Below, one piece after another: positions 15,724-31,811 of a DNA stretch of 64,000 bases (positions are counted from its first letter, which is position 1; every line of letters starts with the position of its first letter). The DNA comes from Myxococcales bacterium. GTDB taxonomy: Bacteria; Myxococcota; Myxococcia; Myxococcales; JAKAPL01. Below the pieces are notes generated by a model. The model searched no databases, was not told where the DNA came from, and was given only the letters and a program-made list of their open reading frames with translations. The position numbers and the translations under genes are program-made. The stretch is from contig JAJXUD010000007.1 of assembly GCA_021783235.1 (NCBI GenBank), positions 10,025-74,024 of the forward strand, given 5' to 3'.

Positions 15724-17030
15724 GCCGGACGGTTGCCAGCCTCGTGGCCCTGGCCCTGGCCGGCTGCGGTGGCCAGGCTCTGCCGAGAGCGCTCTTCTCG
15801 CCGGACGCCGGCAACTCGATCGTGCTGCCGGGCGGCGGGACGACGGCCGGCCCCGCCTGGAAGGCGACGGCCGGGGTCTGGCCCGCGGGGGCGAGCGGGA
15901 TCCCGATGGGCAGCCTCACGGGCAGTGGCCTCGCATCCGGCGGGAGCACGGGTGGCGGCAGCACGGGAACGGCGCCGGCGAGCGGGGGATCGGTCGGCGG
16001 TGATCTGAACCCGGGCAGCGCGCCCTGCGCGGCGCTCCTGCCGGCGCGCGTGCCCGCGCCGGTGACCGTGACGATCTCGAAGCCCGACCAGACGCTCCGC
16101 TGCCTGCCGACACCGGGGACGGACGACGGTCCCGGGACGCTCGCGGTGGGCGAGCTGCCCTCGGTTGGCAAGACCCGGTGGAAGTTCTGGTCGCTCGCGA
16201 CGGGGGCTCTGCTCACGCTCGCGACCGAGAGCTCGGTGAACCTCCCCACCCTCTGGGCCCAGCCCTCGGGCTTCGCGGGACTGACGCTGGACACGGCCTC
16301 GGGGACACAGCTCCTCCGCAGCTACTCGCACGCGGGGCAGCTCGTCTCGAGCGTGCTCGTGCAGAGCGACCCGTCGGGCAGCGCGGCGGGCGCGGGGCTG
16401 CCCGCTGGCGGCGCCGTCGTGATCCGCGGCGTCTTCGCGGCTGGAAGCTGCGAGCTGCGCTACGAGCGCTACGATTCGGTCGGCTCGGCGGCGATCGAGG
16501 AGACCACCGTCGCCGCGGGCCTCGCGCCGCACTCGGGCACGTTGCGTTGCCCGGCGCCGCCCTATTGGCTCTCCCTGTCGGGCGACGCGCTGGTCTTCTT
16601 CGCGCCGGGAGGGGTCCCGAGCGCCGAGTGGGTCGCGCCCGACGGCTCGGTCGCGGTGCCGCCGTTCGAGGTTCCGGCCATCCCCGCTGCCATGGCGGCG
16701 CTCTCCGACGGGTCGCTGGTCGCGAAGGAACCGACGGCCGGCGGGACCGCCTTCTGGCAGCGGAGCTGGCACGACCGCTGGTCGAGCCCGTCGGCGCTGC
16801 CCGACTGGATCGCCAAGGCGCAGCCGCAGGCGATCGCCCCGATCCACGGCGGGCAGGGCTACCTCGCGACCTTCCCCGATCCGGAAGAGAGCGAGCTCTT
16901 CTCGGCCGACGGCACCGCGTGCGGCCCCGCCGGCATACCCGCGGCGGTGGTGGGGCGGGACGGATCGGCCGTGCGGCAGGAGGGGAGCTGCGTCTACGCC
17001 TGGTGGCCGCAGCTCTTCCCAACCCGCTGA
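15720..17030 (+). CDS. Lipoprotein, hypothetical (436 aa)
   Basis: ATGA overlap with the upstream gene. Lipobox LALAGCGG, then a Gly/Ser/Thr linker. No recognisable domain. Confidence 0.65.
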   Translation: MSRTVASLVALALAGCGGQALPRALFSPDAGNSIVLPGGGTTAGPAWKATAGVWPAGASGIPMGSLTGSGLASGGSTGGGSTGTAPASGGSVGGDLNPGSAPCAALLPARVPAPVTVTISKPDQTLRCLPTPGTDDGPGTLAVGELPSVGKTRWKFWSLATGALLTLATESSVNLPTLWAQPSGFAGLTLDTASGTQLLRSYSHAGQLVSSVLVQSDPSGSAAGAGLPAGGAVVIRGVFAAGSCELRYERYDSVGSAAIEETTVAAGLAPHSGTLRCPAPPYWLSLSGDALVFFAPGGVPSAEWVAPDGSVAVPPFEVPAIPAAMAALSDGSLVAKEPTAGGTAFWQRSWHDRWSSPSALPDWIAKAQPQAIAPIHGGQGYLATFPDPEESELFSADGTACGPAGIPAAVVGRDGSAVRQEGSCVYAWWPQLFPTR

Positions 17031-17542: not shown

Positions 17543-19060
17543 TCAGCCGCGGCGGCGTCTGCGGCGGCGCTCGGAGAGGGCCATCGCGCCTCCGAGGCCG
17601 AGGAGTAGCGAGCTGCCGCCCGCGCAGCCGCCAGGGCTTCCCGAGCTGCTGACCTGACAGAGGTTGAAGCTCTGGCCGCCGGACGATTGGGGGACGCAAT
17701 TCCCCTGGCTGCACGTCGCGCCGGTGGCGCACTGGAAGCCCTCGGCGCAGGGCTGTCCCGCGCCCGGCAGCGGCGCGCAGCTTCCCAGCACGCCGGCATC
17801 GGCCCCCAGGCACCATTGCTGCGGGCTGGGCCCCAGAAGGGAGCCTCCGCTCGGGGTGCACGAGAGGTCGCTGATGCAGGGGCCGCCGTCGCCGGAGGGC
17901 GGGGCACAGACCGTCCCTCCGTCCGAGAGCGGCTCGCACCAGCCCTGGAAGCACGACTGGCTGCTCGACGCGACGCAGCCGGCCCGTCCGACGACCAGGG
18001 CCGGGACGCAGCTGCCGCCGACGCCGCAGTAGAGGTACGGGGCCCCACACTCGGAGTCCGCGCCGCAGCTCGTCCCGTTGACGCCGAGGGCGACGCAGCC
18101 CAGGCCACCATCCGCAAGGAAGCCGCAGCTGAGGCAGCTCTGGCAGTCCGCGGCGCTCTGGCAGGGATCGCCCGGGCCGCCGTCTCCCGGTCCGCCCGAG
18201 CTGCTGCCGCTCGCGCTGCAGGTCGGCGGCGATCCGCCGCAGCTTCCGCTCTGGGCGCACTCGTCGCCCATGGCACAGCTCGCGCCGATGGGGACGAGCG
18301 GCTGGCAGACGCCGCTGCCGCCGTCGCTCGCGCAGACGCCTTTGCAGAAGAGACCGCTCGCGCAATCGAAGTCGACCGTGCAGCTTTCGCCCTGGCGCAG
18401 CTGCCCCTGCACGATCCTGAAGCAGGGGCCGGAGCCGCCGTCCGTGCCGATCGTCTGGGCGACCCAGGCGGGCGGCGCGGCCCCCGCATCCAGGCTGAGA
18501 AGGTCGCCCAGGTAGCCGCTGGCGGTCATTCCCTGCGCGCAGCTTGCCGCGGCGGCCGCGTCCCACGAGAGCCGACCGGCCGCGAGCGAAGCCGAGAGCG
18601 CCCGGGCGACCGTGGAGGGCAGGCTCGACGGGTCGGAGCAGGCCGAGGGCCCGAGACCCTGGGGCCAGCCGCCGGCGGGCTCGGAGAGCGTGACGAGCTC
18701 GGCCTGCGCCGCCTGCGTCTCTGCCTGGAGGACGAGCGTCTCGTCGGCGCTCGGGGTCGGGCAGTGAGCTCCGGTCGGCGGTGTCCGCTGCGCGAGGCTC
18801 ACCAGATCGCCGTAGCGGGCGAGCCCTTGCCAGACGAAGTCGCAGAGCTCGGCCTGCGTCGGAGGGCCGCCGCTCGATGAGCCGGTCGTTCCCGAACCTC
18901 CGCCCGAGGAGCCGCCGCCCGTCGTCCCACCGCCGGAGCTCCCGCCGCTCGTGGCGCCCGGGCCGGCTGCGCCTCCCCCGTCCCCCCCGGCGGCTGGCGT
19001 GGCGCAGCAGGCGCCGGCGAGCAGCGTGGAGAGAGCGGCGGCGAAAAGCTCCTTGCCCAT
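17543..19060 (-). CDS. Cys-rich (Dickkopf-N-like repeats) lipoprotein with a MYXO-CTERM-type tail
   Basis: Lipobox LLAGAC and a Gly/Ser/Thr tether. Repeated G-x-x-C-x(4-6)-C-x-x-G/S-x-x-C units. C-terminus SPGGCAGGSSLLLGLGGAMALSERRRRRRRG. Confidence 0.82.
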   Translation of the reverse strand: MGKELFAAALSTLLAGACCATPAAGGDGGGAAGPGATSGGSSGGGTTGGGSSGGGSGTTGSSSGGPPTQAELCDFVWQGLARYGDLVSLAQRTPPTGAHCPTPSADETLVLQAETQAAQAELVTLSEPAGGWPQGLGPSACSDPSSLPSTVARALSASLAAGRLSWDAAAAASCAQGMTASGYLGDLLSLDAGAAPPAWVAQTIGTDGGSGPCFRIVQGQLRQGESCTVDFDCASGLFCKGVCASDGGSGVCQPLVPIGASCAMGDECAQSGSCGGSPPTCSASGSSSGGPGDGGPGDPCQSAADCQSCLSCGFLADGGLGCVALGVNGTSCGADSECGAPYLYCGVGGSCVPALVVGRAGCVASSSQSCFQGWCEPLSDGGTVCAPPSGDGGPCISDLSCTPSGGSLLGPSPQQWCLGADAGVLGSCAPLPGAGQPCAEGFQCATGATCSQGNCVPQSSGGQSFNLCQVSSSGSPGGCAGGSSLLLGLGGAMALSERRRRRRRG

Positions 19061-19078
19061 GGCGTCTCCCTTCGTCGA

Positions 19079-20794
19079 TCAGGCGCGCTTGCGGCGGCGC
19101 AGCAGCACGAGCGCGCCGCCGAGCCCCAGGTAGAGCGAGAGGAGCGGTCCCTGGCAGCCGCTCGTCCCGGAGCCGGAGGCGAGGCAGGGGCTCTCGCAGA
19201 AACCAGCCTGGCAGAGCCCACTCAGGCATTCGCTCGCCGCGGCGCAGCTGGCGCCGCCGGGCTTTTGGGCGGCGCAGAGGGCCGAGGTCGCGAGGCAGTA
19301 GGCGCCCTCGGCGCAGAGCCCGGTGCGGGAGCAGGGTTCTCCCACGCTGGGCAGCGGCGCGCAGGTCGACAGGGCTCCCGTGAGGCTCACCTCGCAGTAG
19401 CTGCCCTGCGCGCACTGCCCTTGCGGCGTGCAGCCGGCGTCGGGTCCGGGCAGTGGCGTGCAGCTCCCGCTCGCGGCGCCATTCGTGCCGACGGGGAGCT
19501 GGCACCAGTCCCCCGGGTCGGCGCAGGTCGGGCTCAGCCACGGCGCGCTCCCGCACGGTTGACCCCGTGTGGGGAACGGGAGGCATTCGCCCGGTACGCT
19601 GGTCCCGGCGTCCTGGGCACAGAAGAGCTCCGGGGAGGCGCAGCCACGCCCCTGCAGGCAGGGCCCGCCGGCGCCGGAGAGCGGTAGGCAGGATCCCGTC
19701 GAGGAGCTCGGCGAGGTGGGCTCGCACCAGCCCCCCAGGCAGGAGAACGGACTCGCGGTCGGGCAGAGGGCGCCGGGCAGCAGCGCGGCCGCGCAGTGGT
19801 CGGCCGAGCAGAACTGGAGGGGGAGCGCGCAGTCGCCGTCCGCGGCGCAGAGCGCGCCGATGGCGGGGGGGAGGGTGCAGAAGGTCCCGCCGCCATCGCG
19901 GGGCGAGCAGGAGAGGCAGCTCTCGCAGTCTGCGGCGCTCTGGCATGGGGCCCCCGGGGCGCTCGCGCCGGAGGGGACGCCCGCGTCGGGGCTGCCGCCG
20001 CAGCGGCCGGAGAAGCAGGCGAGGCCTGCCGCGCAGAGGTCGAGCGGCCCGCACGGGCTGCCGGGAGGGACGGGCGGGGCGCAGACGCCACCGCAGCCGC
20101 CGTCGCCAGGCGAGCGGCAGTAGAGGCCGGCGACGCAGTCTGGCCCGATGGTGCAGCCGCCGCCCGTGGCGACGCGGCCGACGAGGATCCGCGAGCAGAC
20201 GCCGCCGCCGTCGGGGAGTAACGCCGCCTCCCCCGGAAGGAGCCCGGCGTCTGGAAGGAGCGCGCCGAGGAGCTCGCCGCTCGCCCCGACGGCCGCGAGG
20301 CAGCTCTGGTTGGCCGCGGCGTTCCAGCCGATCCGGCCCGCGTCGAGCGAGGCGGCGAGCTGGGCGGGCAGCCCGCCGAGCGCGCTGGTCGGGTCGTCGC
20401 AGATCGCCGGCCCCGAGCCGTCGGGCCAGCCGCCGTCCGGCGGCGAGAGCGTCAGGAGCGCCGGCGCCGCGGCAGCGAGCTGCGCCTGCAGGTAGGCGCG
20501 CTGGGCCGGAGTCGGCGCCGGGCAGAACGGGCCTTGCGCCAGTGAGACGCCCGAGGCCGCGGAGAGGTCGAAGAGCAGCGCGGCTCGGCGCTCGCCGGCC
20601 CAGAGCCGGAGGCAGAGCTGCTTGGCATCGGGCGGGCCGGCGTCCGCGAGCGGGGGGAAGACGAAGGCGCCGGAGGAGCCGCCGCTCGATCCCCCACCAC
20701 CGCCCCCAGTGGTTTGGCCGCCGCCATCCGGCCCCGCGGCAGGGCCACAGCCCGCGAGCAGAGTGAACCAGAGGAGAAAGCGGCTGGAGCGCAG
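19079..20794 (-). CDS. Cys-rich lipoprotein with a MYXO-CTERM-type tail, paralog of 17543..19060; apparent CTG start; only its last 103 codons are in the ORF track
   Basis: I checked every codon of this minus frame from 20929 down to 19079. There is no stop, and no ATG/GTG/TTG upstream of 19390. N-terminus (L)RSSRFLLWFTLLAGCGP carries a lipobox. GGGAGG lies 6 nt upstream of CTG 20794..20792. C-terminus GTSGCQGPLLSLYLGLGGALVLLRRRKRA. Confidence 0.72.
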   Translation of the reverse strand: MRSSRFLLWFTLLAGCGPAAGPDGGGQTTGGGGGGSSGGSSGAFVFPPLADAGPPDAKQLCLRLWAGERRAALLFDLSAASGVSLAQGPFCPAPTPAQRAYLQAQLAAAAPALLTLSPPDGGWPDGSGPAICDDPTSALGGLPAQLAASLDAGRIGWNAAANQSCLAAVGASGELLGALLPDAGLLPGEAALLPDGGGVCSRILVGRVATGGGCTIGPDCVAGLYCRSPGDGGCGGVCAPPVPPGSPCGPLDLCAAGLACFSGRCGGSPDAGVPSGASAPGAPCQSAADCESCLSCSPRDGGGTFCTLPPAIGALCAADGDCALPLQFCSADHCAAALLPGALCPTASPFSCLGGWCEPTSPSSSTGSCLPLSGAGGPCLQGRGCASPELFCAQDAGTSVPGECLPFPTRGQPCGSAPWLSPTCADPGDWCQLPVGTNGAASGSCTPLPGPDAGCTPQGQCAQGSYCEVSLTGALSTCAPLPSVGEPCSRTGLCAEGAYCLATSALCAAQKPGGASCAAASECLSGLCQAGFCESPCLASGSGTSGCQGPLLSLYLGLGGALVLLRRRKRA

Positions 20795-20811
20795 GTGGAG
20801 CCTCCCACCTT

Positions 20812-20841
20812 CGGATAGCGGGGGGAGGGCGCGGCTGTCAA
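20812..20841 (-). promoter_or_regulatory. Candidate promoter of the minus-strand Cys-rich/TRL operon (TTGACA-N18-TATCCG)
   Basis: Read on the minus strand: TTGACA (20841..20836), 18-nt spacer, TATCCG (20817..20812), then a short leader containing GGGAGG. Confidence 0.35.
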
Positions 20842-20872
20842 CTCGTTGCCCGGCGGCCGGCAGCCCTTCGTC

Positions 20873-20902
20873 TTGACCGGCCGTTTGGCTGGTCTGTATG
20901 CT
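20873..20902 (+). promoter_or_regulatory. Candidate promoter of 20932..24027 (TTGACC-N18-TATGCT)
   Basis: TTGACC at 20873..20878, 18-nt spacer, TATGCT at 20897..20902, 29 nt before the ATG. Confidence 0.4.
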
Positions 20903-20931
20903 GCCATCCTGTCCATAGATCGGGGTTTTTC

Positions 20932-23900
20932 ATGACCAGCGCCCTTCGTCTCGGCCGAGTCGTCGCGGCCGTCGCCGTTTTCGGGCTCGGCCTCTCCGCC
21001 TGCTGCAAGAAGGGCGGCAGCGGGATTCAGAGCTCCTCCGGCGAGCCGCAGATCCAGACGGGCGGCGGCGTCAGCTCCAGTTCGCCATCGCAGGCGACGG
21101 TCGACTTCGGCGACGTGCCGGTCGGCCAGAAGACGACTCTGACGCTGAAGCTCTCGAACGTCGGCATCGCGTCGCTGAACATCCTGAAGGTCGAGGTCAC
21201 GAAGCCGGATCCCGAGTTCACGGTGGACGTGCAGGAGGGGGCGCAGGTGGGCAGCGAGCCGCTCGCGATCCCGATCCGCTTCCTGCCGTTCACGACGGGG
21301 CCGAAGACCGCGACGGTCGTGCTGCAGACGGACTCGGCCGACGTCCCGACGGTGACCTTGAATCTGTCGGGGACGGGCGTGAAGCTGGCGCTCTCGGTGG
21401 TGCCCGAGGCCATCGACTTCGGCAAGGTGGTGGTCCAGACGACGGCGACGCAGAGCATCGCCATCACGAACGCCTCGGGGGTCTCGTTGACCTTGACCCT
21501 CTCGGCGCTCCAGGGGGCGCAGGCGCCGCTCTTCGCGCTGGGGTCGCTCGCCGCGACGACGATCGCGCCGAGCCAGACGGTGCAGCTTCAGGTCAGCTAC
21601 TCGCCGGTGGTGAAGGGGCCGGTGCCCGATACCGCCTACTTCACGCTGGGCTACTGCACCGGCTGCAACCCGCTGACGGTGAACCTCCGGGGCGAGCCGG
21701 TGGACACCGGGCTTTCGGTGAGTCCGATGCCCTTGGACTTCGGCTTCGTGCAGCTGGGCGGCGCGGTCTCGAAGATCATCAAGCTGCAGAACGTCGCGAA
21801 CCGTTCGATCCATCTGACCAACACGCCGCTGCTCGACACCGGCCACCCGGCGGCGGCCTTCGCCTTTGGATCGGCGATGCCGGCGTTCCCCGCGGTGATT
21901 CCCGCGAACGGCGAGGTGGACGTGCCGGTGGTCTTCACGCCGCCGGGGCTCGCCGAGTTCAAGGGGAGCGTCGTCTTCACGAGCGACGATCCGCAGGCGA
22001 GCCAGGTCACGGTGAACCTGGACGGCTTCGGTGGCGGGGCGCAGATCTCCTGCCTGCCGTCGAGCGTCGCGTTCGGCCAGTCGCCGATCGGAGTCGGGGT
22101 CACGCAGCGGGTCCAGTGCACGAACGTCGGCCAGGACGTGCCGGGTCACCCCGAGGGGAACCTCCAGCTCAGCTCGCTCGCGGTGCCGGACGACAAGGCG
22201 TTCTCGGCCCATTTCGACGCGCCGTTTCCGACGGCGGGGCTGCAGGCTGGGCAGAGCGCGGTCATCGACGTCGTCTACGCGGCCGTGACGAGCGCCGGCG
22301 ACCTCGGCCACCTGCACATCGGGAGCAACGACACCACGACTCCCGATACGGTGGTGCCGCTCTCGGGCACGGGTGTGAACCTGCCGCCGTGCGACTTCGC
22401 GATCGTCCCGGCCGCCGGCGTGGACTTCGGCCACGTCGACAAGGGCAACTCCGGGCAGCTCCAGTTCGCGATCCAGAACCAGGGGGCGAGTGACTGCCTC
22501 GTGGACGGCCTCTCGCTCGCGCCGAGCTCCGACCCGTCCTTCTCGCTGCCGAGCGGGCCCATCGCGTCGCAGGTCGTGAGCTACAAGGGCAACCCCGCGG
22601 GCGCCCCGGCGGAGCTCGACGTCACGGTCCAGTTCGCCCCGACCGGCTACGGCAACTTCTCGGGCGACGCCGTCTTCACGATCTCGGATCCGTCCTCGCC
22701 GCAGCAGGACGTCCACCTGACGGGGACCAGCGAGCCGGGGTGCCTGCTCATCGCCCCGAACGACCTCGACTTCGGCGTCGTCGGCGTGAACCCGGCCACG
22801 GGGGCCTGGTGCTCGTCCGTCAAGCGAAACTTCGAGGTCTACAACACCTGCAACTACGACGTGCACCTGACCGGCATCACCCTGAACCCGGGCATCGGGA
22901 GCACCGACTTCGTCCTCTCCGGCCAGCCCGCGAGCTACCCGGTGGATCTCCCGCCGGGATCGAACCCGGTGACGTTCCAGGTGGCCTTCCACCCGGACAG
23001 CCAGGGGCAGAAGCTCGGCTCGCTCGGCATCACGACGAAGGAGCTGCCGACGGCGCCCTACCTCGTGACCTTCCACGGCGACGCCGAGGTCAACGCGACG
23101 CAGACCGACACGTTCACGCAGTCGAGCCAGCCGCAGGTCGACATCCTCTGGGTGGTCGACAACGACGACAACCAGCAGGTCCAGCAGCTCGTCGCCCAGA
23201 ACCTCCCGTCGTTCATGCAGTACGCTCTCTCGGCTGGCATCGACTTCCACATGGCCGTGACGGCGACGGACGTCTGCCAGACGGGCACCTCCGACGACGG
23301 CTGGTTCGACCCGTGCAGCCACTGCGCCGAGATGGGCAGCAACGCGACCATCGTCACCCCGCAGACGCAGCCGGATCCGACCTCGGTCCTCCAGAACCTG
23401 ATCCAGGTGGGGCAGAGCGGGGGCTGCGACGACCCGCTCTTCGAGCCGGCCTACGAGGCGCTCCAGCCGTCCCTCCTCTCCGGCCACAACTCGGGCTTCC
23501 TGCGGCCGAACGCCTACCTCGCGGTCATCGGCATCTCGGACGGCGACGACAACAGCCAGCAGAGCGTCCAGTTCTATTACAACTTCTTCGAGAGCGTGAA
23601 GGGCTTCCGCAACGCGAGCATGTTCTCGTTCTCGGCGGTCAACGAGCTCCCCACCGACTCGGCGGGCGGCTGCTCGAACGGCCTGGCCTATGACGACGAC
23701 CCCTCGCAGGTCACGCGCGTCCCGCAGATGGTCCAGATGACCGGCGGGCTGAACGTCGACATCTGCACGAGCGACTGGGGCTCCTCGCTCCAGCAGCTCG
23801 GCAACATCGCCTTCGGCGCCCGGACGAGCTTCCCCTTGACCGCCCAGCCGGCCGACCCGACGAAGATCACGGTCACCCTGAACGGCCAGCCGCTGCCGCC

Positions 23901-24027
23901 GACGGGGCCGAACAACGCGCCCGAGTGGCACTACGATCCGACGCAGAACGCGCTGGTCTTCGACCCACTCGCGGCTCCGCAGCCGGGCGATCAGATCACC
24001 GTCACTTACACGGTCGCCTGCAATTGA
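20932..24027 (+). CDS. Large lipoprotein: six ASH/choice-of-anchor-D-like modules plus a C-terminal vWA-like domain with a degenerate MIDAS (paralog of 12766..15723)
   Basis: Lipobox GLGLSAC. Six x-DFG-x-V modules. VDILWVVDNDDNQQ (DNDDN at 23158..23172) replaces DxSxS. Same C-terminal architecture, ending ...VTYTVACN. Confidence 0.85.
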   Translation: MTSALRLGRVVAAVAVFGLGLSACCKKGGSGIQSSSGEPQIQTGGGVSSSSPSQATVDFGDVPVGQKTTLTLKLSNVGIASLNILKVEVTKPDPEFTVDVQEGAQVGSEPLAIPIRFLPFTTGPKTATVVLQTDSADVPTVTLNLSGTGVKLALSVVPEAIDFGKVVVQTTATQSIAITNASGVSLTLTLSALQGAQAPLFALGSLAATTIAPSQTVQLQVSYSPVVKGPVPDTAYFTLGYCTGCNPLTVNLRGEPVDTGLSVSPMPLDFGFVQLGGAVSKIIKLQNVANRSIHLTNTPLLDTGHPAAAFAFGSAMPAFPAVIPANGEVDVPVVFTPPGLAEFKGSVVFTSDDPQASQVTVNLDGFGGGAQISCLPSSVAFGQSPIGVGVTQRVQCTNVGQDVPGHPEGNLQLSSLAVPDDKAFSAHFDAPFPTAGLQAGQSAVIDVVYAAVTSAGDLGHLHIGSNDTTTPDTVVPLSGTGVNLPPCDFAIVPAAGVDFGHVDKGNSGQLQFAIQNQGASDCLVDGLSLAPSSDPSFSLPSGPIASQVVSYKGNPAGAPAELDVTVQFAPTGYGNFSGDAVFTISDPSSPQQDVHLTGTSEPGCLLIAPNDLDFGVVGVNPATGAWCSSVKRNFEVYNTCNYDVHLTGITLNPGIGSTDFVLSGQPASYPVDLPPGSNPVTFQVAFHPDSQGQKLGSLGITTKELPTAPYLVTFHGDAEVNATQTDTFTQSSQPQVDILWVVDNDDNQQVQQLVAQNLPSFMQYALSAGIDFHMAVTATDVCQTGTSDDGWFDPCSHCAEMGSNATIVTPQTQPDPTSVLQNLIQVGQSGGCDDPLFEPAYEALQPSLLSGHNSGFLRPNAYLAVIGISDGDDNSQQSVQFYYNFFESVKGFRNASMFSFSAVNELPTDSAGGCSNGLAYDDDPSQVTRVPQMVQMTGGLNVDICTSDWGSSLQQLGNIAFGARTSFPLTAQPADPTKITVTLNGQPLPPTGPNNAPEWHYDPTQNALVFDPLAAPQPGDQITVTYTVACN

Positions 24028-24065: not shown

Positions 24066-25448
24066 TTGAATCGGTCGGCTCGCATTCTCTTCACGGCGGC
24101 GATCGCCCTCGCGGCGGCGCTCGGCGACTCCTGCTCCTGCGGCAACCGCTGCGCCGGTGTCTCGTGCGCCACGGGCGAGGCCTGCGACCCGGCCGACGGC
24201 CAGTGCAAGTGCGGCGGCGCCCAGGGATCGGGCAACGGGACGGGGGGCGTCGTCTGCGGCAGCGGCGAGAAGTGCGACCCGAATCTCCAGGCATGCGTCT
24301 CGAGCCTCTGCGACGCGGTGAGCTGCTCGAACGGCAACGGCTGTGACCCCGCCGACGGCAAGTGCAAGTGCGGCGGCGTGGTCTGCGCGCCGGACGAGCT
24401 CTGCGACCAGTCGACCCACGACTGCCAGGGGACGGCGGCCTGCGCGGGCGTGCTCTGCCCGGGAGGGACCTCCTGCGACCCGCTCGACGGCCTCTGCAAG
24501 TGCGGCGTCTCCGTCTGCGACGGAGGCGAGATCTGCGCCGACGCCGGCTGCGTCGCCGACCCGTGCTTCGGGGTCTTTTGCCCGGGGAGCCTCGACGGCG
24601 GCGGAGGCAACTCCTGCTTCGGCGGCCTCTGCCATTGCGGCGGCCCGGACGGCCCCATCTGCGACACGGGCCAGAGCTGCGCCACCGCGTCGAAGAGCTG
24701 CCAGCCGAGCGAGCTTTGCCAGGGCGTCTCCTGCGAGCCCGGCGCCATCTGCGGGCCCGCCGACGGCCTCTGCCACTGCGGGGGAGTCTCGGGACCGGTC
24801 TGCGGCGGCGGGGCGACCTGCGTCCTCTACGGGCTCGACGCTGGTCCGCCGTTGCCGGCGGACGCGGGTCTTCCCGACGGCGGGATCGTGGGCCGCTGCC
24901 TCGGCGGCAACCTCTGCGCCGGCGTCGCCTGCCCGGAAGGCGAGAGCTGCGATCCGACGAGCGGCGCCTGCCTCTGCGGAGCCACCTCGGGGAGCTCCGG
25001 CTTCGCGTGCGGTCCGGGCCAGATCTGCGAGAGCCTCCCGGGCTGGAGCGGTCCGGGCTGTCTGACGCCCTGCGACCCGTACGCGCAGCCGCCCTTTCAG
25101 AACGTGCCGTCGTGCCCGAAGGCGGACGGTGGGGCCCCGGACGCGGCGGCGCCGGAGGCCTGCTACCTCGAGCCGGACGCGAGCGTGGTGATCTGCGAGC
25201 GCTCGGGTCCCGGCACCGACGGAGCGCCGTGCGGCATCCAGTCCGACTGTGCGCCGGGCTTCGGCTGCTTCCCCCCGCCGGCCGACGCGGGAACGAGCGC
25301 CCTGCAGTGCTGGGCCTTCTGCGACAGCTTCGACGGAGGGATTCACACCTGCCTCGGCTTCGGCCGACAGTGCGTGGGAGAGGCCGAGATCGCCCAGGAC
25401 GGCGGCCTCGTCCAGGTCGGCGCCTGCTTCCCCGCGAGCCAGCCCTAG
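24066..25448 (+). CDS. Secreted protein made of tandem Cys-rich repeats
   Basis: GGGAGG lies 5 nt upstream of TTG 24066. Signal peptide (M)NRSARILFTAAIALAAALG. About six units of C-x-GV-x-C-x-x-G-x-x-C-D-P-x-D-G-x-C-K/H-C-G-G. The track ORF's earlier start (23925) overlaps the upstream gene. Confidence 0.75.
   Translation: MNRSARILFTAAIALAAALGDSCSCGNRCAGVSCATGEACDPADGQCKCGGAQGSGNGTGGVVCGSGEKCDPNLQACVSSLCDAVSCSNGNGCDPADGKCKCGGVVCAPDELCDQSTHDCQGTAACAGVLCPGGTSCDPLDGLCKCGVSVCDGGEICADAGCVADPCFGVFCPGSLDGGGGNSCFGGLCHCGGPDGPICDTGQSCATASKSCQPSELCQGVSCEPGAICGPADGLCHCGGVSGPVCGGGATCVLYGLDAGPPLPADAGLPDGGIVGRCLGGNLCAGVACPEGESCDPTSGACLCGATSGSSGFACGPGQICESLPGWSGPGCLTPCDPYAQPPFQNVPSCPKADGGAPDAAAPEACYLEPDASVVICERSGPGTDGAPCGIQSDCAPGFGCFPPPADAGTSALQCWAFCDSFDGGIHTCLGFGRQCVGEAEIAQDGGLVQVGACFPASQP
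24150..25075 (+). repeat. Protein-level tandem array of about 45-aa Cys-rich units
   Basis: CAGVSCATGEACDPADGQCKCGG / CDAVSCSNGNGCDPADGKCKCGG / CAGVLCPGGTSCDPLDGLCKCG / CQGVSCEPGAICGPADGLCHCGG / CAGVACPEGESCDPTSGACLCG. Confidence 0.7.
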
Positions 25449-25457
25449 GAGTCGCCC

Positions 25458-28400
25458 GTGAGAACGCTCAGCTCGATCCCGATCCTGGCCCTGGCCCTCG
25501 CGGCGACGCCGGCCCTCGCGCAGGACGGGGGCGTGCCCGCCTACCCGGTCCTCGTCTCGAGTGGGAGCTACGCGCCGCTCGGTGACGCGGGCAGCCCGGT
25601 CCCCGGCGTCACCGGCACCCAGAACGGCGTCGGCACGATCTCGCTCAGCGGCTGGCAGTTTCCCTACTTCGGCCAGCAGTTCTCGCAGATCACGGTCACC
25701 ACCGACGGCTACCTCATCGTCGGCGACGGGTCGGAGTGCGGCTGCACGGCTGCCGCGGGCGGCATGGCCGCGGGCTGCGCCGATCCGATGACCTACTGCG
25801 ACCCGTCGTTCGGTGCGCCCTGCAGCGGCCCCGGCTCCGGCTGCTGCTCGCTGCCGGCCTACCAGAGCTCGTGCCAGGGCGGCAATTTTCCGAGCTGCGG
25901 CGGCGGCTGTTGCACGAACTGTCTCGTGACGCCGCCGTCGAACGCCGGCCCCGATCCCGCCGCCGTCGGCACCATCGCGGGCTGGTGGGAGCAGCTCGAC
26001 GACAGCGCGGCGAAGGGGATCAGCTACGCCCAGGGTGGCGCCGACGGCGGCCACTTCCTCACGGTCGATTACCATGGCGTTCCCGCCCTCAACACCGGCT
26101 TCAGCGGCTGGAACGTCTACGACTTCCAGATCACGCTCGACGAGTCCGGGCTCGTGCAGGTGACCTACGGTCAGACCTTCGCGGGCGACGCCGGGGTCGA
26201 TTCGAGCAGCGCCTGGGCGAGCCTCGAGGGCTACGACGGGGGCCAGTGGGTGCCCGGACTCGGCTGCGACGTCGACGGCGGGAGCCTGATCTCTGGCGCC
26301 TTCTCCTACAGCGGCTGCACCGCCGCGAACTGGCCGACGGACACGACCGTCTCCTATGGCTCCCCCGCCGGCGTCTTCCTCACGCCCTCGTCGGTTCAGA
26401 TCCAGGGGCTCTCGCTCGACGGAGGCTTGACCATCGACGTCACCACCGTCGCTTCGGACTTCGGGCGGACCGCCATCGGCTCGTCGTTCGACTACTCGGT
26501 CTATCTCGTCCAGCAGCCCGAGCCCGCGACGGCGCTCGCCGCCTGTCCGGGCGGCGCCGGCTGCCTCGGCGGCTTCACCGCGTCGGGCGGCGTGCCCGCG
26601 CAGGGCAGCGCGACCTTGGACACGGGTCCCATCACGATCCCGATCCCGGCACAGCAGGGCAGCTACTACGTCGAGGTCTGGCTCGACCCCACGAACTCGA
26701 CCGGCAGCGTGCAGCCGAGCGCGCTGGTGGGAGTCTCGTCGCCGCTCGCCCTCGGCATCGACCTGACCGGCGCGGTCGGCGCGCTACCCGCCGCCGTCCC
26801 CGCGAACGGCAGCTTCCAGCTTCCGATCACGCTGGAGAACCTCGGGCTCTTGCCTTCGGGGACGTTCCACTACCAGCTCTGGCTCACCCAGGCGAACACC
26901 GGAATCGACCCCCAGACCGACCTGCTCGTCGAGGACGCGACGGCGAGTCTCGTGGGCGGTCAGACCGTGACGAAGACGGACACTGCCACAACGAACAACG
27001 CGGCCCAAGGGCAGTACTACCTTGCCCTCACGATCGATCCGGCCCACCAGCTGGGCGACATCGATTACGGCAACAACGTCGTCTTCTCGGCCACCACGGC
27101 GAGCGTCACGCCAGCCCACCTCAAGGTGACCGCGGTCGGCGCGCCGGCGGAGGCGTTCCCCGACTTCCCGACGCACGTCTCCTACACGATCGAGAACGAC
27201 GGCGACGACATCGCCGCGGGCTTCGCCATCGGGCTCGTCATCCATCCCCAGTCGAAGGGGACGACCTTCACCCTGAACGACCCGCGGCTGCTCGAACTCG
27301 ACGGCGTCACCATCGCTCCGAAGTGCACCGTCCAGGCCGAGGACGGCGTCATCCTCCAGGCGACGCCCGCGGGCTGCGCGACCTTCCCCTCTCCCGCCGT
27401 GACCGAGAGCAAGGTGCCGGCGACGATGTACGGGGCGGCGACGGCGCCGGGAAACTACCTCGTGGGCGTCATCGCCGATCTCTACAGCCAGGTGAACGAG
27501 GCTCGCAACGCCAACCGCATGGGCGCGCCAAACGTCACGGTCGTCCAGGCGCCGGCGCCCGACCTCGCGGTGGGCCTCGGCGATCTCACCGCGCCGCCAG
27601 CGGCCTCGGCGGGCGACCGGATCTGGGTCGACCGATCGATCCACAACCTCGGCATCGCGACGGGTAGCGCGCCCTACGGCTACTTTCTTTCCGATACGGG
27701 CGAGGCGAACGCGGGCGGCGTGCCCGTGCCGGTCGTTCTGCCGACGGGCGTGGTCACCTACCGCCCAACGACGCAGACGCTCTCGCCGCCGGGGCAGGGG
27801 ACGAGCGACGACCGGGGCTCGGATCTGCTCGCGCTTCCTTCGGGGCTGTCGCCGGGGAGCTACACCCTCTCTCTCGTCATCGACCCGGACCGGGTGGCGC
27901 CCGATCTCGATCGGACGAACGACACCGTCGCAGCCCCCGAGCCGCTCGCGATCTCGGCGGACGGCCTGCAGCTGCTCGGCGGCAACCTGCCTCCGGCGCT
28001 CGTCCATTCTCCTTACGCCTACCAGCTCGAGATCTCGGGCGCGGCGACCGCTCCCGCCTTCCAACTCGTGGCTGGGGGACTGCCGGCCGGCTTGTCGCTC
28101 TCTGGGTCAGGCCTCGTCTCCGGGACCCCCACGGCCCTCGGCGGCTCGACCTTCGTCGTGCTCGCGACGAGCGGACAGAAGCAGCAGCTCGCCACCTGTG
28201 CGCTGACCGTCGCCCAGCCCTCGGGGCCCCTTGAGGTCGTCGTCAGCGGTTCCGAGCTTCCGCCCGCGACGGTTGGCCGCGCGTACACGCTGCAGCTCGC
28301 CGCCGTCGGAGGCGTCCCGCCCTACGACTGGACGGCCGACGGTCCCATCCCTGGTGGCGGCGACCTCGCGCTCGAGCCGTCTGGCCTCCTCGCCGGAACC

Positions 28401-31400
28401 CCAGCGACGGTCGCCGCGGGCTCGCTCCACGTCACGGTGACGGACCAGGCGGGCAACGTGGTGCAGGCGACCCTGGGGCTGCGGGCGGTGGATCTCGGGA
28501 CGCTCGCGATCACGACCACCCTCATCGGTCCCGCCACCGTGGGCCAGAGCTTCGTCGGGCCGATCGAGGCGACCGAGGGCGACGGGCAGAACCACATCTA
28601 CACCTGGACGCTTCCCCAGGGGCAGGAGCTGCCGCCGGGACTCGAGCTCGTCACCCAGGGGACGCCGGCGCTCGGCCAGCTCTCGGGAACGCCCAGGCTC
28701 GCCGGGTCGTGGCCGTTCCGGGTGGTCGTCACCGACGAGTCCAAGCACGAGGCCACGCGGGAATTCGTACTCGTCGTCAACCCGGCGCCGCTCGACGTCT
28801 CCGCCCAGTCACTGCCGGCGGCGACGCAGGGCAAGCCCTACCAGGTGACGCTCCAGGCGAGCACGAGCGGTCTCGTGACGTTCTCGCTCTTCTCCGGCGA
28901 CCTTCCGCCGGGGCTGTCGGTCGGCACCGACGGGAGCATCGGTGGCACCGTCGACGCCAAGGCCGAGGTCCGGACGTATCCCTTCGCGGTGCTCGCCATC
29001 GATTCGAGCGGCGACCAGGCGCTGTTGCCGCTCTCCATCCAGCTGCTGGCCGCGTCGCCCGCGCCGAGCGGTGGTTGCGGGACGGGCGGCGGTCCCGGGG
29101 GGCTCCTCGCGGTCGGGGCCGCGCTCTGGCTCATCTCGCGCCGGCGGAGAGGCTTCGTCGCGGCGGTGGCCGGGGCGGCGCTGCTGCTCTTCGGCGCGCT
29201 GCCCGCTCGCGCGGCCTTCGGCTACTCCGTGGCCAAGGGCACGACCACCTTCCAGGACATCACCGCGCAGCCCGGCACGGCGGTCCTCTCCCAGTCGCAG
29301 GAGATGAGCCCGACCCAGTACCCCGTGACCCTCCCCTTCCCGTTCAGTTACGGCGGAAGCTCGTTCTCTTCGATGACGGTCTGGAGCAACGGTGCCGTCT
29401 CCTTCGACGCGAACGGCAGCGCCCAGTCGAGCGACGGCTGCGGGGCCTTCCCCTTCTCGAACTGTCCGGGGCTCCAGACCGTGCTCGCGCCGTGGTGGGG
29501 GGACCTGACCGTCTGCTACCAGGCCTCCGTCGCCTGGATGACGACTGGTAGTCCTGGCAACCGGCTGATCACCGTGCAGTGGACCAACCTGAACACGGAC
29601 GACGGCTGCCAGGGCGTCAGCGCCGGGCAGAGTCTCTTCACTTTCCAGCTCCAGCTCCACGAGTCCTCGGGCGCCGTCGACTTCATCTACGGCCCCTCGA
29701 CCCAGGGGCTCTCGAGCTGCCTGTCGGGAAGCTGCTCCTTCGCGGTCGGCATCGAGGATGGCGCGGACGGTCTCGGGGGCCTCGCCTGCAACGCTGCTTG
29801 TCAGGTCACCGACATCCCGGGCGCGGGGACCGCCCTCGTCTTCTCGGAGAGGCCGGATCTGCAGATCGCGCAGCTCACCGCCCCGTCGGCGGTCGAGCAG
29901 GGAGGCGCGATGACGCTTCAGCTCGAGGTTCAGAACGCCGGCGCGGTGGCCGCGAGTCAGGCGACCGGGAGCTTCTTCTACTCGCCGGACGGCGGCAGCT
30001 ACGACCCGACGGCGCCGCTCGGCGGCGTCGGCCCCTTCAACCTCGCGGGCAGCTCCAGCGCGACCCTGCGTCGGACCGTCACCCTGCCCAGCGGCGCCGC
30101 GGTGGGAACGGGCTACGTCGTGGCGGTGGTCCAGGACTCGGGCGATCCCGACCCCATCGGCAAGACCCTTGCGTCGGCCCCGTTCGAGGTGATCCCCGCC
30201 ACTCCGGACCTCATCCCGACCGCCCTCCAGATCCCGAGCGGTGGCGCTCCCGGCGCGACCGTCTCCTTCGCGCCGACCATCGTGAACCAGGGGACGGCGA
30301 CGGCGACGGCGGTCGCCTACGCCTACTACCTCTCGACCGACGCGACGGTCAGCGTCGTCGATCTCCAGGTCGGCGGCGGCACCGTCGCGTCGCTCCCGCC
30401 AGGGCAGACGTTCCAGACGACCGACCAGGTGACTCTCCCCGCCGGGCTCGCGCCCGGAAGCTACACGGTCGGCCTCATCGTGGATCCGGCGGGCGAGAGC
30501 CCGGAGTCCTCCCGTTCGAACGAGACCTTCGTCGCCGGCAGCCGGCTCGCCGTCCAGGCGGGAGCCCTGGCGGTCGCGACCTCCAAGCTGCCCCCCGCCC
30601 AAGTCGGGGCGCCGTACCAGGCGCTGCTCGCGGCCACCGGCGGCGACGGCCACTACCAGTGGAGCGTTGCCTCGGGCAGCTTGCCGAGCGGGCTCTCGCT
30701 CGACGCTCAGCTCGGCGCCATCGCCGGGACCCCCGCCGCCGTAGGCACCTCCCGGCTCACCCTGAAGCTTCAGGACGGAAGCGGCCAGTCGGCGACGATG
30801 CCGCTCGCGATCCAGGTGACGGCGCTCGCGGTCCCGCTCGAGGTCGTGACGACGGTGCTGCCCGGCGGCTCGTTCGGCGTTCCCTACCAGGTCGACCTCG
30901 TGGCCACGGGTGGCGCGCCGCCTTACCTCTGGTCGCTCTCTGCGGGGGGCCGGCCGCCTCCGGGCATCTCGCTCTCTTCGGGCGGCGTCCTCGCGGGAAG
31001 CCCCGCTGCCGACGGCGCATTCGTCTTCCAGGTGGAGGTCCAGGACTCGACCGGGAAGAGCGCGCAGTCGGGACCGCTGGATCTCGAGGTGCTCTCGCCG
31101 GGCCGCGTCAGCGTCGCCGAGGCGGAGCTCGCTCCGGCGACGGTGGGGAAGGCCTACGTGGCCGAGCTCCTCGCGGTGGGAGGCACCCCGACCTACTCCT
31201 GGCAGCTCGTCTCAGACGAGCGGCTGCCGGGTGGCGCCGGTGACACGGGGCAGGATCTCGCCCAGGCCATGCCGCCCGGGCTCGCGCTCGAGACGAACGG
31301 CGCCGTCTCCGGGGTGCCGACCGTCACTGGTCAGTTTGCGCTCACGCTGCAGGTGACCGACTCCTCGACGCCGCCCGACACGGTCACCGACACGGTCGTC

Positions 31401-31811
31401 CTGACGGTGCTGCCGGATCAGGCCCTCGCGATCACGAACCCGACGCTCCCCGAGGCGACGGAGGGGACGCCCTACCGGATCTCGTTCGACACGAACGCCA
31501 CCGGGGGCCAGGTGACGTTCCAGCTGGTCGACGGGCTGGGCGAGAACTCGCCGGCCGCGCGCAAGACGCTCCCCCCCGGACTGACGATTGACACGACCGG
31601 GCTGCTCTCCGGCACGCCGACGGCCACCGGTACCTTCGATTTCCTCGTCGAGGCGAGCGATGCGGAGAACCGGCGCGCCATCCAGGCGGCCTCGCTGACG
31701 GTCCTCCCGAGCCAGGGCAAGGGTTGCGGCACGGCGCCCGGGAGCGGGGGTGGGGGCAGCCTCGCGCTCCTCCTCGCGCTCGGCGCGCTCCTCGCTCGGA
31801 GACGCGGATGA
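25458..31811 (+). CDS. Giant cell-surface protein (2117 aa), apparently two fused modules, each = signal peptide + NIDO-like N-domain + CARDB-like domains + He_PIG (putative Ig) repeats + MYXO-CTERM-type tag
   Basis: Single track ORF. N-terminal signal [22 protein letters not shown]. Repeated LPPA-x-VG-x-x-Y-x-x-x-L...GG-x-x-P-Y-x-W...LP-x-GLSL...G-x-(I/L/V)-x-G-T-P units. Tags at residues ~1207-1232 and at the C-terminus. Confidence 0.85.
27952..29048 (+). repeat. He_PIG/putative-Ig repeat array of module 1 (about 4 units)
   Basis: Examples: [18 protein letters not shown]...[18 protein letters not shown] and [26 protein letters not shown]. Confidence 0.65.
29076..29153 (+). other. Internal MYXO-CTERM-like tag in the middle of the 2117-aa ORF
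   Basis: [28 protein letters not shown] (Cys codon at 29076), immediately followed by the signal-peptide-like [22 protein letters not shown] (29154..29213). Confidence 0.7.
30562..31708 (+). repeat. He_PIG/putative-Ig repeat array of module 2 (about 4-5 units)
   Basis: Examples: [49 protein letters not shown] and [26 protein letters not shown]. Confidence 0.65.
31725..31808 (+). other. C-terminal MYXO-CTERM-type tag of the giant ORF
   Basis: [31 protein letters not shown]-stop. Confidence 0.7.

Follow-up and report, generated by a model that had tools for sequence, protein, structure and literature searches.

Within a 64,000-nucleotide (nt) stretch of a Myxococcales bacterium genome (GenBank assembly GCA_021783235.1, contig JAJXUD010000007.1, positions 10,025 to 74,024 of the forward strand; hereafter the window), a single open reading frame (ORF) of 2117 amino acids (aa) carries, between two paralogous units, a MYXO-CTERM-type sorting tag followed directly by a signal-peptide-like segment. 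The reading frame across this junction is single and conserved, the elements of the junction follow a fixed grammar, the fusion is old, and equivalent components occur both as genes of their own and fused. Our favored reading, held with modest confidence, is that the ORF is probably a genuine, anciently fused polyprotein of two paralogous surface proteins, with signal peptidase and a myxosortase predicted to cut at both junction sites. MYXO-CTERM proteins enter the Sec pathway, are held by the helix of the tag and are thought to be lipidated on an invariant cysteine; the CPBP-family protease MrtX cleaves MYXO-CTERM in a Cys-dependent manner, and the surface is reached via type II secretion (PMC11980579). 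The parts of the ORF are:

25458..31811, plus strand: the polyprotein ORF, GTG start, 2117 aa, single reading frame (gene call, translation)
25458..25520, plus strand: N-terminal signal peptide, residues 1-21, ending before a Gln (translation, by inspection)
25521..29066, plus strand: unit A, residues 22-1203, with a NIDO-like N-terminal domain (N-domain) bearing a Cys-rich insert, CARDB-type domains and four He_PIG immunoglobulin (Ig)-like repeats (Pfam)
29067..29153, plus strand: internal MYXO-CTERM-type tag, residues 1204-1232 (sequence, hidden Markov model, structural model)
29154..29213, plus strand: internal signal-peptide-like segment, residues 1233-1252, with the preceding RRRR as its would-be n-region (sequence)
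29214..31715, plus strand: unit B, residues 1253-2086, with a NIDO-like N-domain, two CARDB domains and four He_PIG repeats (Pfam)
31716..31811, plus strand: terminal MYXO-CTERM tag, residues 2087-2117, and the stop codon (TIGR03901, sequence)

A sequence-only reading of the window had noticed that the Cys/Gly-rich, hydrophobic and poly-Arg pattern of the C-terminus recurs in mid-ORF, and the profile search bears this out: on TIGR03382 (GC_trans_RRR) the internal tag reaches 20.1 bits, above the cut-off of 15.85. The terminal tag, at 28.3 bits on TIGR03901 (MYXO-CTERM, cut-off 20), is an ordinary member of that family. Both copies have the invariant cysteine of MYXO-CTERM, in SGGCGTGGG (Cys1207, 29076-29078) for the internal tag and in GKGCGTAPG for the terminal one, and in the internal copy a hydrophobic helix of 12 residues (L1216-S1227, 29103-29138) runs into RRRR (29139-29150) and a Gly, in keeping with the MYXO-CTERM pattern of a helix plus two to five basic residues. 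Positionally, the internal tag lies 885 residues away from the C-terminus, and only the terminal tag occupies the C-terminal place; the internal copy works like a MYXO-CTERM tag but is no C-terminal domain. As expected of tagged proteins, the ORF begins with a signal (by inspection), whose AxA|Q pattern is common to the N-termini of its homologues, and two more ORFs of the window end in Cys-helix-Arg tags.

The same reading had found no stop codon behind the internal tag, and in the translation the frame indeed runs on into the signal-like segment and then into AFGY at 29214. Its description of that segment as a Sec signal stands as far as layout goes, which by inspection is that of a type I signal, with RRRR(G), a 16-residue uncharged h-region and P-ARA|A, the last being a predicted signal peptidase I site after nt 29213; it does not stand for position, the segment (residues 1233-1252) being internal rather than N-terminal. 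Structurally, an AlphaFold2 model of residues 1198-1462 places one helix at 1214-1227 and another at 1233-1245, with RRRRG between them and a beta-sandwich domain behind, at an overall predicted local distance difference test (pLDDT) score of 81 and a mean above 80 for most 10-residue blocks of the unit B N-domain.

The two halves repeat one another, each with CARDB and four He_PIG stretches in Pfam, and they align over 456 aa at 34% identity (E 1e-47), with their N-domains matching each other weakly (E 3e-4). The claim that the downstream half repeats the upstream architecture thus holds for CARDB, the four He_PIG repeats and the tag, but only weakly for NIDO. PF06119 (NIDO) matched neither window N-domain at E<=1 and gave weak matches in 9/24 related unit N-domains (best E 2.5e-4), and a Foldseek query of the PDB with the modelled junction and N-domain returned nothing at E<0.5. 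The label 'NIDO-like', which we retain, is therefore weakly supported; the N-domain motifs LPFxFxFYG, NGxxSF and APxWDDL presumably resemble those of NIDO. Searched against 1.84 billion representatives, the unit B N-domain (~220 residues, 29214..29870) has 2297 relatives at E<=1e-3, and it is a widespread, poorly described beta-sandwich domain. Its relatives often lie in the interior of very large proteins, with loci in metagenome-assembled genomes (MAGs) labelled Leptospiraceae and Rokuibacteriota.

Conservation of the junction and age of the fusion

An identical 2117-aa protein is encoded on 23 contigs from several independent assemblies, including four GenBank MAGs and two Logan run assemblies. 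Whether orthologous loci hold one gene or two had been posed as a question from the sequence alone; they hold one, with an ORF in frame across the junction at 7/7 loci, five of them ~45-65% identical. Gene order is conserved around it, namely an ASH/HYDIN-Ig gene (~1030 aa), a Cys-rich gene (~460 aa), the polyprotein ORF, an acyl-CoA dehydrogenase and CutA1: the full order is present at P0003/L007 (53% identity) and L019, and at P0002/L009 (54% identity) it is kept as far as the 8-kb contig reaches. A scan of species-representative genomes, queried with a four-sequence alignment, added two fused orthologues (L012 and L013) in MAGs labelled Proteobacteria and Myxococcales, and a closer orthologue fragment, P0115, is fused too, with an N-domain 67% identical to that of the window. 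More generally, the MAGs of the relatives carry the labels Myxococcales, Myxococcota or Deltaproteobacteria. Identities run collinearly and at similar levels through unit A (P0002 56%, P0003 54%, P0014 26%) and unit B (52%, 52% and 29%, respectively). Because the identical protein recurs on 23 contigs, and orthologous loci and distant homologues alike are in frame, the ORF is no artefact.

Candidates for an unfused state were examined and rejected. P0004 (1389 aa) and P0124 (788 aa) resembled a split orthologue, but the contig that holds them, L019, has frameshifts throughout, and the junction on it is in frame; the single-unit proteins P0005 and P0036 have no second unit next to either of them. 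On L019 (ENA contig_18807) several genes are called in pieces, the acyl-CoA dehydrogenase included, and 'unfused' homologues in protein databases can, as here, be frameshift artefacts. Both single-unit members end in an ordinary terminal tag, and P0005 is a unit of the same type as window unit A.

The junction persists well beyond the orthologues. Relatives at ~28% identity (P0010, P0011, P0013, P0014, P0022 and P0025) have the same junction in the same place, and the unit B N-domain search, against the 1.84 billion representatives, added the junction-bearing proteins P0127, P0149, P0152, P0174, P0215, P0222, P0224, P0233, P0234 and P0239. Two of these, P0127 (4011 aa) and P0233 (4029 aa), contain three junctions and hence four units apiece. 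Across 28 junctions in 20 proteins the order of elements is constant: a Cys motif, often GC or GCxC and ~20-32 residues ahead of the basic cluster (Cys in 28/28), a hydrophobic helix, three to five basic residues, usually a short loop, and an h-region of 10-16 residues without charge. Of the type-I junctions, 26 were read, 24 from database proteins and one each from L012 and L013; in all of them [A/V/S]-x-A stands right before the conserved start of the next N-domain (xPYxxL..GG...LPFxFxFYG), and 14 of the 26 have Gln at +1, as do most N-termini of family proteins. Internal tags of relatives exceed the TIGR03901 cut-off in 9/10 cases, at 20.1-36.8 bits. Outside the signal elements the junction sequence is not conserved and the helices vary freely, a combination that is expected of sorting signals and not of a specific structural hairpin. 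Since the tag-plus-signal junction recurs in place in every orthologue and distant homologue examined, the feature lies far beyond chance. We also observed the same junction, DEGCKCN...RKK-IISLTLPLFLVFSVFSTAQA|Q, in P0152 (1594 aa), a Lys-rich protein of low-GC appearance from an NCBI metagenome contig; the device may therefore extend beyond high-GC Myxococcota.

Evolutionarily, a neighbor-joining tree of unit N-domains, a simple distance tree of ~270 columns to be read for its broad pattern only, groups units by position across proteins and not within proteins. The first unit of the window falls with the first units of P0002 and P0003 and with P0005, the second with the second units of P0002 and P0003 and near those of P0149, P0174, P0010, P0013 and P0014, and the four-unit proteins resemble a union of two pairs, one of the P0025 type and one of the P0215/P0022 type. 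Because units group by position and the two halves are equally conserved, the fusion is old and both parts are under selection. A Cys-helix-Arg tag stands at the C-terminus of 10 of the best 150 N-domain representatives, and 7 of those 10 proteins are multi-unit.

A second type of junction brings in the gene directly upstream of the polyprotein ORF:

24066..25448, plus strand: Cys-rich gene, 460 aa, with its own N-terminal signal and CDPxDGxCKCGG repeats (translation)

The 460-aa protein has no Pfam match, but it is similar to the third unit of P0013 (37% identity over 381 aa, E 9e-44) and of P0010 (E 3e-33). Its ~70 relatives in Myxococcota MAGs are nearly all stand-alone proteins of 410-510 aa, and a loose pattern search picks out a lipobox-like motif at the N-terminus of more than half of them, in many cases a canonical one (LAGC, LSAC, LVGC). 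In P0010 and P0013 the second junction consists of a tag, a lipobox-like signal (...ALPSFTA|C and ...VLMSG|C) and a Cys-rich unit lacking a terminal tag, and the fragment P0299 likewise has a He_PIG unit, a tag, a lipobox signal (LLGLG|C) and a Cys-rich unit. The signals of these three junctions are lipobox-like and not all canonical, and the window junction is of the other type. A component apparently exported as a lipoprotein when it stands alone thus seems to retain the signal for this in fusions, where it follows a sorting tag. A lipobox Cys has a role only if its signal is processed. Of the indirect evidence for use of the internal signals, the fused lipobox units are the strongest.

Predicted processing and competing accounts

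The sequence-only reading had named two alternatives, fused genes and a single polypeptide that forms a hairpin at its middle; both hold, the one as origin and the other as present state, with cleavage a prediction on top of them. We posit the following course. The N-terminal signal peptide would start Sec export of unit A, and the internal MYXO-CTERM helix would act as a stop-transfer segment, leaving RRRR in the cytoplasm. The second hydrophobic segment would then re-enter the translocon as an internal signal peptide, with the same Arg cluster as its n-region, and so start export of unit B until the terminal tag stopped transfer again. Signal peptidase I would cut after ARA1252 and free unit B; each unit would be lipidated at its tag cysteine, cut by myxosortase (MrtX) and moved to the cell surface as for ordinary MYXO-CTERM proteins, leaving a hairpin peptide of ~45 residues in the membrane. 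The outcome would be two lipid-anchored surface proteins in a 1:1 ratio, and the likely benefit is that partner surface proteins are made in fixed 1:1 proportion and delivered together. In its sequence, the junction keeps every element that both proteases would need. For the family as a whole, we see an even chance that its members are true surface polyproteins, in which one chain would pass out of the inner membrane and back two to four times, and myxosortase together with a housekeeping signal peptidase (I or II) would divide it into two to four proteins, each with a lipid anchor of its own.

Several points weigh against this processing. Every cleavage, every lipidation and the surface location are things we infer from sequence. 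Two TIGR03901 hits had been expected at the outset, and the scan of the whole protein did pick out two stretches, but the internal one, at 17.4 bits, falls just under the cut-off of 20. No myxosortase motif pair (EExxxR...HxxxN) in a plausible context was found among the ORFs of the 64-kb window. A crude rule-based signal-peptide test called 24/24 type-I database junctions against ~19-23% of control positions, and with so high a background in Ala/Gly-rich proteins this is supporting evidence only; Ala-rich sequence also gives A-x-A easily.

The continuous frame, the modelled helical hairpin and the sub-threshold internal tag would also suit a permanent anchor, that is, one inner-membrane protein with two large periplasmic domains around an uncleaved two-helix hairpin, in which at most the terminal tag is processed. 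We consider this unlikely, though less so than the other alternatives. A hairpin kept for its own sake does not account for a tag Cys in 28/28 junctions and A-x-A in 26/26 type-I junctions while the helix sequences themselves are not conserved, and the second segment, at 10-16 residues, has the length of a signal peptide and is short for a stable transmembrane helix. The lipobox variants stand ahead of a unit that, as a stand-alone protein, is apparently a lipoprotein, and an inner-membrane tether would prevent unit A from getting to the surface, its arrival there being the known purpose of the tag (PMC11980579).

Processing might also be partial, with only one of the two cuts made: either signal peptidase would release unit B while unit A keeps the hairpin, or myxosortase would release unit A while unit B stays held by an uncleaved N-terminal signal-anchor. 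Internal signals are, as a general consideration, not always cleaved, and MrtX may not use a tag that precedes a second membrane segment in place of a short cytoplasmic tail, which counts against cleavage at both sites. The determinants of an unused cut should decay, however, and both sets are kept together across ~28-55% identity; we regard a single cut as distinctly improbable.

Another possibility is that unit B is translated separately from a start codon inside the junction, making the fusion only apparent at the protein level. Two junctions lend themselves to this, to the detriment of the polyprotein reading: weakly that of the window, where GGAGAGG is followed 13 nt on by an in-frame GTG (29166), and that of L012, where GGAGGGG is followed by an ATG directly after RRRRG (MPVRPAAW...). 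Elsewhere the provision is missing, the L009 junction having no in-frame ATG, GTG or TTG and that of L007 only a GTG in the middle of the h-region, and conserved internal initiation was rejected since no start codon is kept across the junctions. Starting at the window GTG would yield a signal peptide devoid of a positive n-region, the GGAG motif is a by-product of CGG-AGA/AGG arginine codons, and with no stop codon ribosomes translating unit A would read through anyway, all of which makes separate translation very improbable. The gene boundaries of the window are laid out unlike the junction: the Cys-rich gene and the polyprotein ORF meet at TAGGAG-N7-GTG (25446-25460), with the stop 9 nt before the GTG, and the two minus-strand tagged genes described below at TGA-N18-ATG, with a spacer that holds AAGGGAGA, while the polyprotein ORF and the acyl-CoA dehydrogenase gene share an ATGA. 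As separate observations, the Arg clusters of both tags (29139..29152 and 31797..31808) have the rare AGA/AGG beside CGG, giving Shine-Dalgarno-like GGAG(A/G)GG, and RRRRG-MPVRPAAW in L012 (1785..1802) has the look of a leftover start codon and n-region from a downstream gene that used to be separate.

Finally, a sequencing or assembly error, or a recent inactivating loss of the stop between tandem genes by mutation or indel, would need as little as one T-to-A change (TGA to AGA) at codon 1231 and could point to the unfused tandem pair of tagged genes in the same window, but on the sequences compared this account, which the sequence-only reading had kept in view, is refuted by the 23 contigs of independent assemblies with an identical protein, the in-frame junctions of 7/7 orthologous loci and of the ~28%-identity homologues, and the equal conservation of the two halves.

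Flanking genes

The remaining genes of note in the window lie upstream of the Cys-rich gene:

20932..24027, plus strand: ASH/HYDIN-type Ig-repeat gene, 1031 aa, part of the conserved cluster (gene calls, Pfam)
17543-19060 and 19079-20929, minus strand: tagged Cys-rich ORFs, each ending in a MYXO-CTERM-like Cys-helix-Arg tag

The ASH/HYDIN-Ig gene stands upstream of the orthologues at L007 and L019 and adjoins the distant four-unit P0233. A second ASH-type gene of 985 aa lies at ~12.8-15.7 kb on the plus strand of the window, and an unrelated lipoprotein-like gene of 436 aa (15720..17030) comes after it. The two minus-strand ORFs (17543..20929) are tandem paralogous Cys-rich genes (41% identity, E 7e-49) with Dickkopf_N-like Pfam matches, and both start with a lipobox signal (..FTLLAGC and ..STLLAGAC); as a tagged pair, they form the unfused version of the tag-then-signal arrangement. 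The upstream one is probably under-called, its public annotation consisting of a 103-aa call and a 135-aa call on the opposite strand where the stop-to-stop ORF measures 616 aa. These genes were considered as homologues of the third unit of P0010 and P0013 and rejected, with no significant similarity found (E>0.1). Downstream, the stop codon of the polyprotein ORF overlaps the ATG of the acyl-CoA dehydrogenase gene (ATGA, 31808-31811), as it does at L007 and L009; that genes for a surface protein and for a metabolic enzyme should be coupled in this conserved way is odd.

Comparison with known systems

In terms of parts, the nearest relative is the canonical MYXO-CTERM/MrtX system, for example TraA of Myxococcus xanthus, which has the same Cys motif, helix and Arg cluster (PMC11980579; bioRxiv 10.1101/2023.06.07.544157). 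The window ORF shares with it an N-terminal Sec signal, a Myxococcota host, large Ig-repeat cargo and a standard terminal tag, but differs in having, 885 residues from the C-terminus, a second tag with a signal peptide and another complete cargo directly behind it; what the internal copy lacks is proximity to the C-terminus, a listed defining attribute of MYXO-CTERM tags. More broadly, the LPXTG, PEP-CTERM, PGF-CTERM, GlyGly-CTERM and MYXO-CTERM tags are all C-terminal by definition and in annotation, and in this conserved family tags alternate with signal peptides inside one ORF, so that sorting signals may act as internal punctuation. Annotation pipelines will misdescribe these proteins if they seek the tag at the C-terminus alone or report such ORFs as frameshifted or fused. 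That components occur in some cases as genes of their own and in others as fused units also marks out three kinds of protein, ASH-Ig, Cys-rich and NIDO-like/CARDB/He_PIG, as a single surface assembly of uncultured Myxococcota. If the proposed processing is true, the tag-then-signal junction would be a general device that lets neighboring genes for secreted partners fuse while each keeps its export, and fusion would fix the stoichiometry of the partners and deliver them at the same place.

The sequence-only reading knew of no description of either arrangement for MYXO-CTERM proteins, but part of it has been described: internal motifs are already in print as 'rare', with M. xanthus MXAN_5598 read as a gene fusion whose N-terminal part is processed, a processing proposed because sorting tags work mid-protein (PMC11980579). 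Both proteins thus have an internal tag and a two-gene fusion reading, and for MXAN_5598 the N-terminal adhesin is proposed to be processed and surface-anchored; the difference is that MXAN_5598 is a rare single case that joins an adhesin to an outer-membrane barrel/OmpA module (PMC11980579). The excerpted account, with which we compared by description only, mentions no internal signal peptide, repeated units, second tag or conservation (PMC11980579). That remark was all that our literature search gave on bacterial surface polyproteins with internal tags and signal peptides, and the literature searched held nothing on a conserved family of multi-unit proteins with signal peptides inside them, although its limited coverage makes this no proof of novelty.

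Precedent for mid-protein processing comes from an ArtA substrate of Haloferax volcanii with a non-C-terminal PGF-type tripartite signal (Abdul Halim et al. 2017, J Bacteriol 199:e00802-16, as cited in PMC11980579). The system differs in being archaeal, in using an archaeosortase and not a myxosortase, and in that the protein is a Tat substrate. Within bacteria, the FbcH cytochrome b-c1 precursor of Bradyrhizobium japonicum was reportedly found by Thony-Meyer and co-workers (~1989-1991) to be split at an internal signal sequence after membrane helices, a natural polyprotein that yields two proteins; it differs in being a respiratory-complex subunit with no sorting tag, repeated paralogous units or surface display. 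As for the ArtA substrate, the part after its signal is not known to be a second exported unit.

Mechanistically, the closest likeness is the bunyavirus Gn/Gc precursor, in which the anchor helix of the upstream protein is followed by a short loop in the cytoplasm and then by an internal signal peptide for Gc; signal peptidase cuts the latter, and one ORF gives two separately anchored ectodomains, as proposed here (PMC5113920). It is an analogy of mechanism only, since Gn/Gc is made in the eukaryotic endoplasmic reticulum by the host signal peptidase complex, with no homology and no C-terminal lipid-anchoring protease. If the predicted cuts occur, the family would be a bacterial counterpart of viral glycoprotein polyproteins and a natural test of which substrates MrtX and signal peptidase accept.

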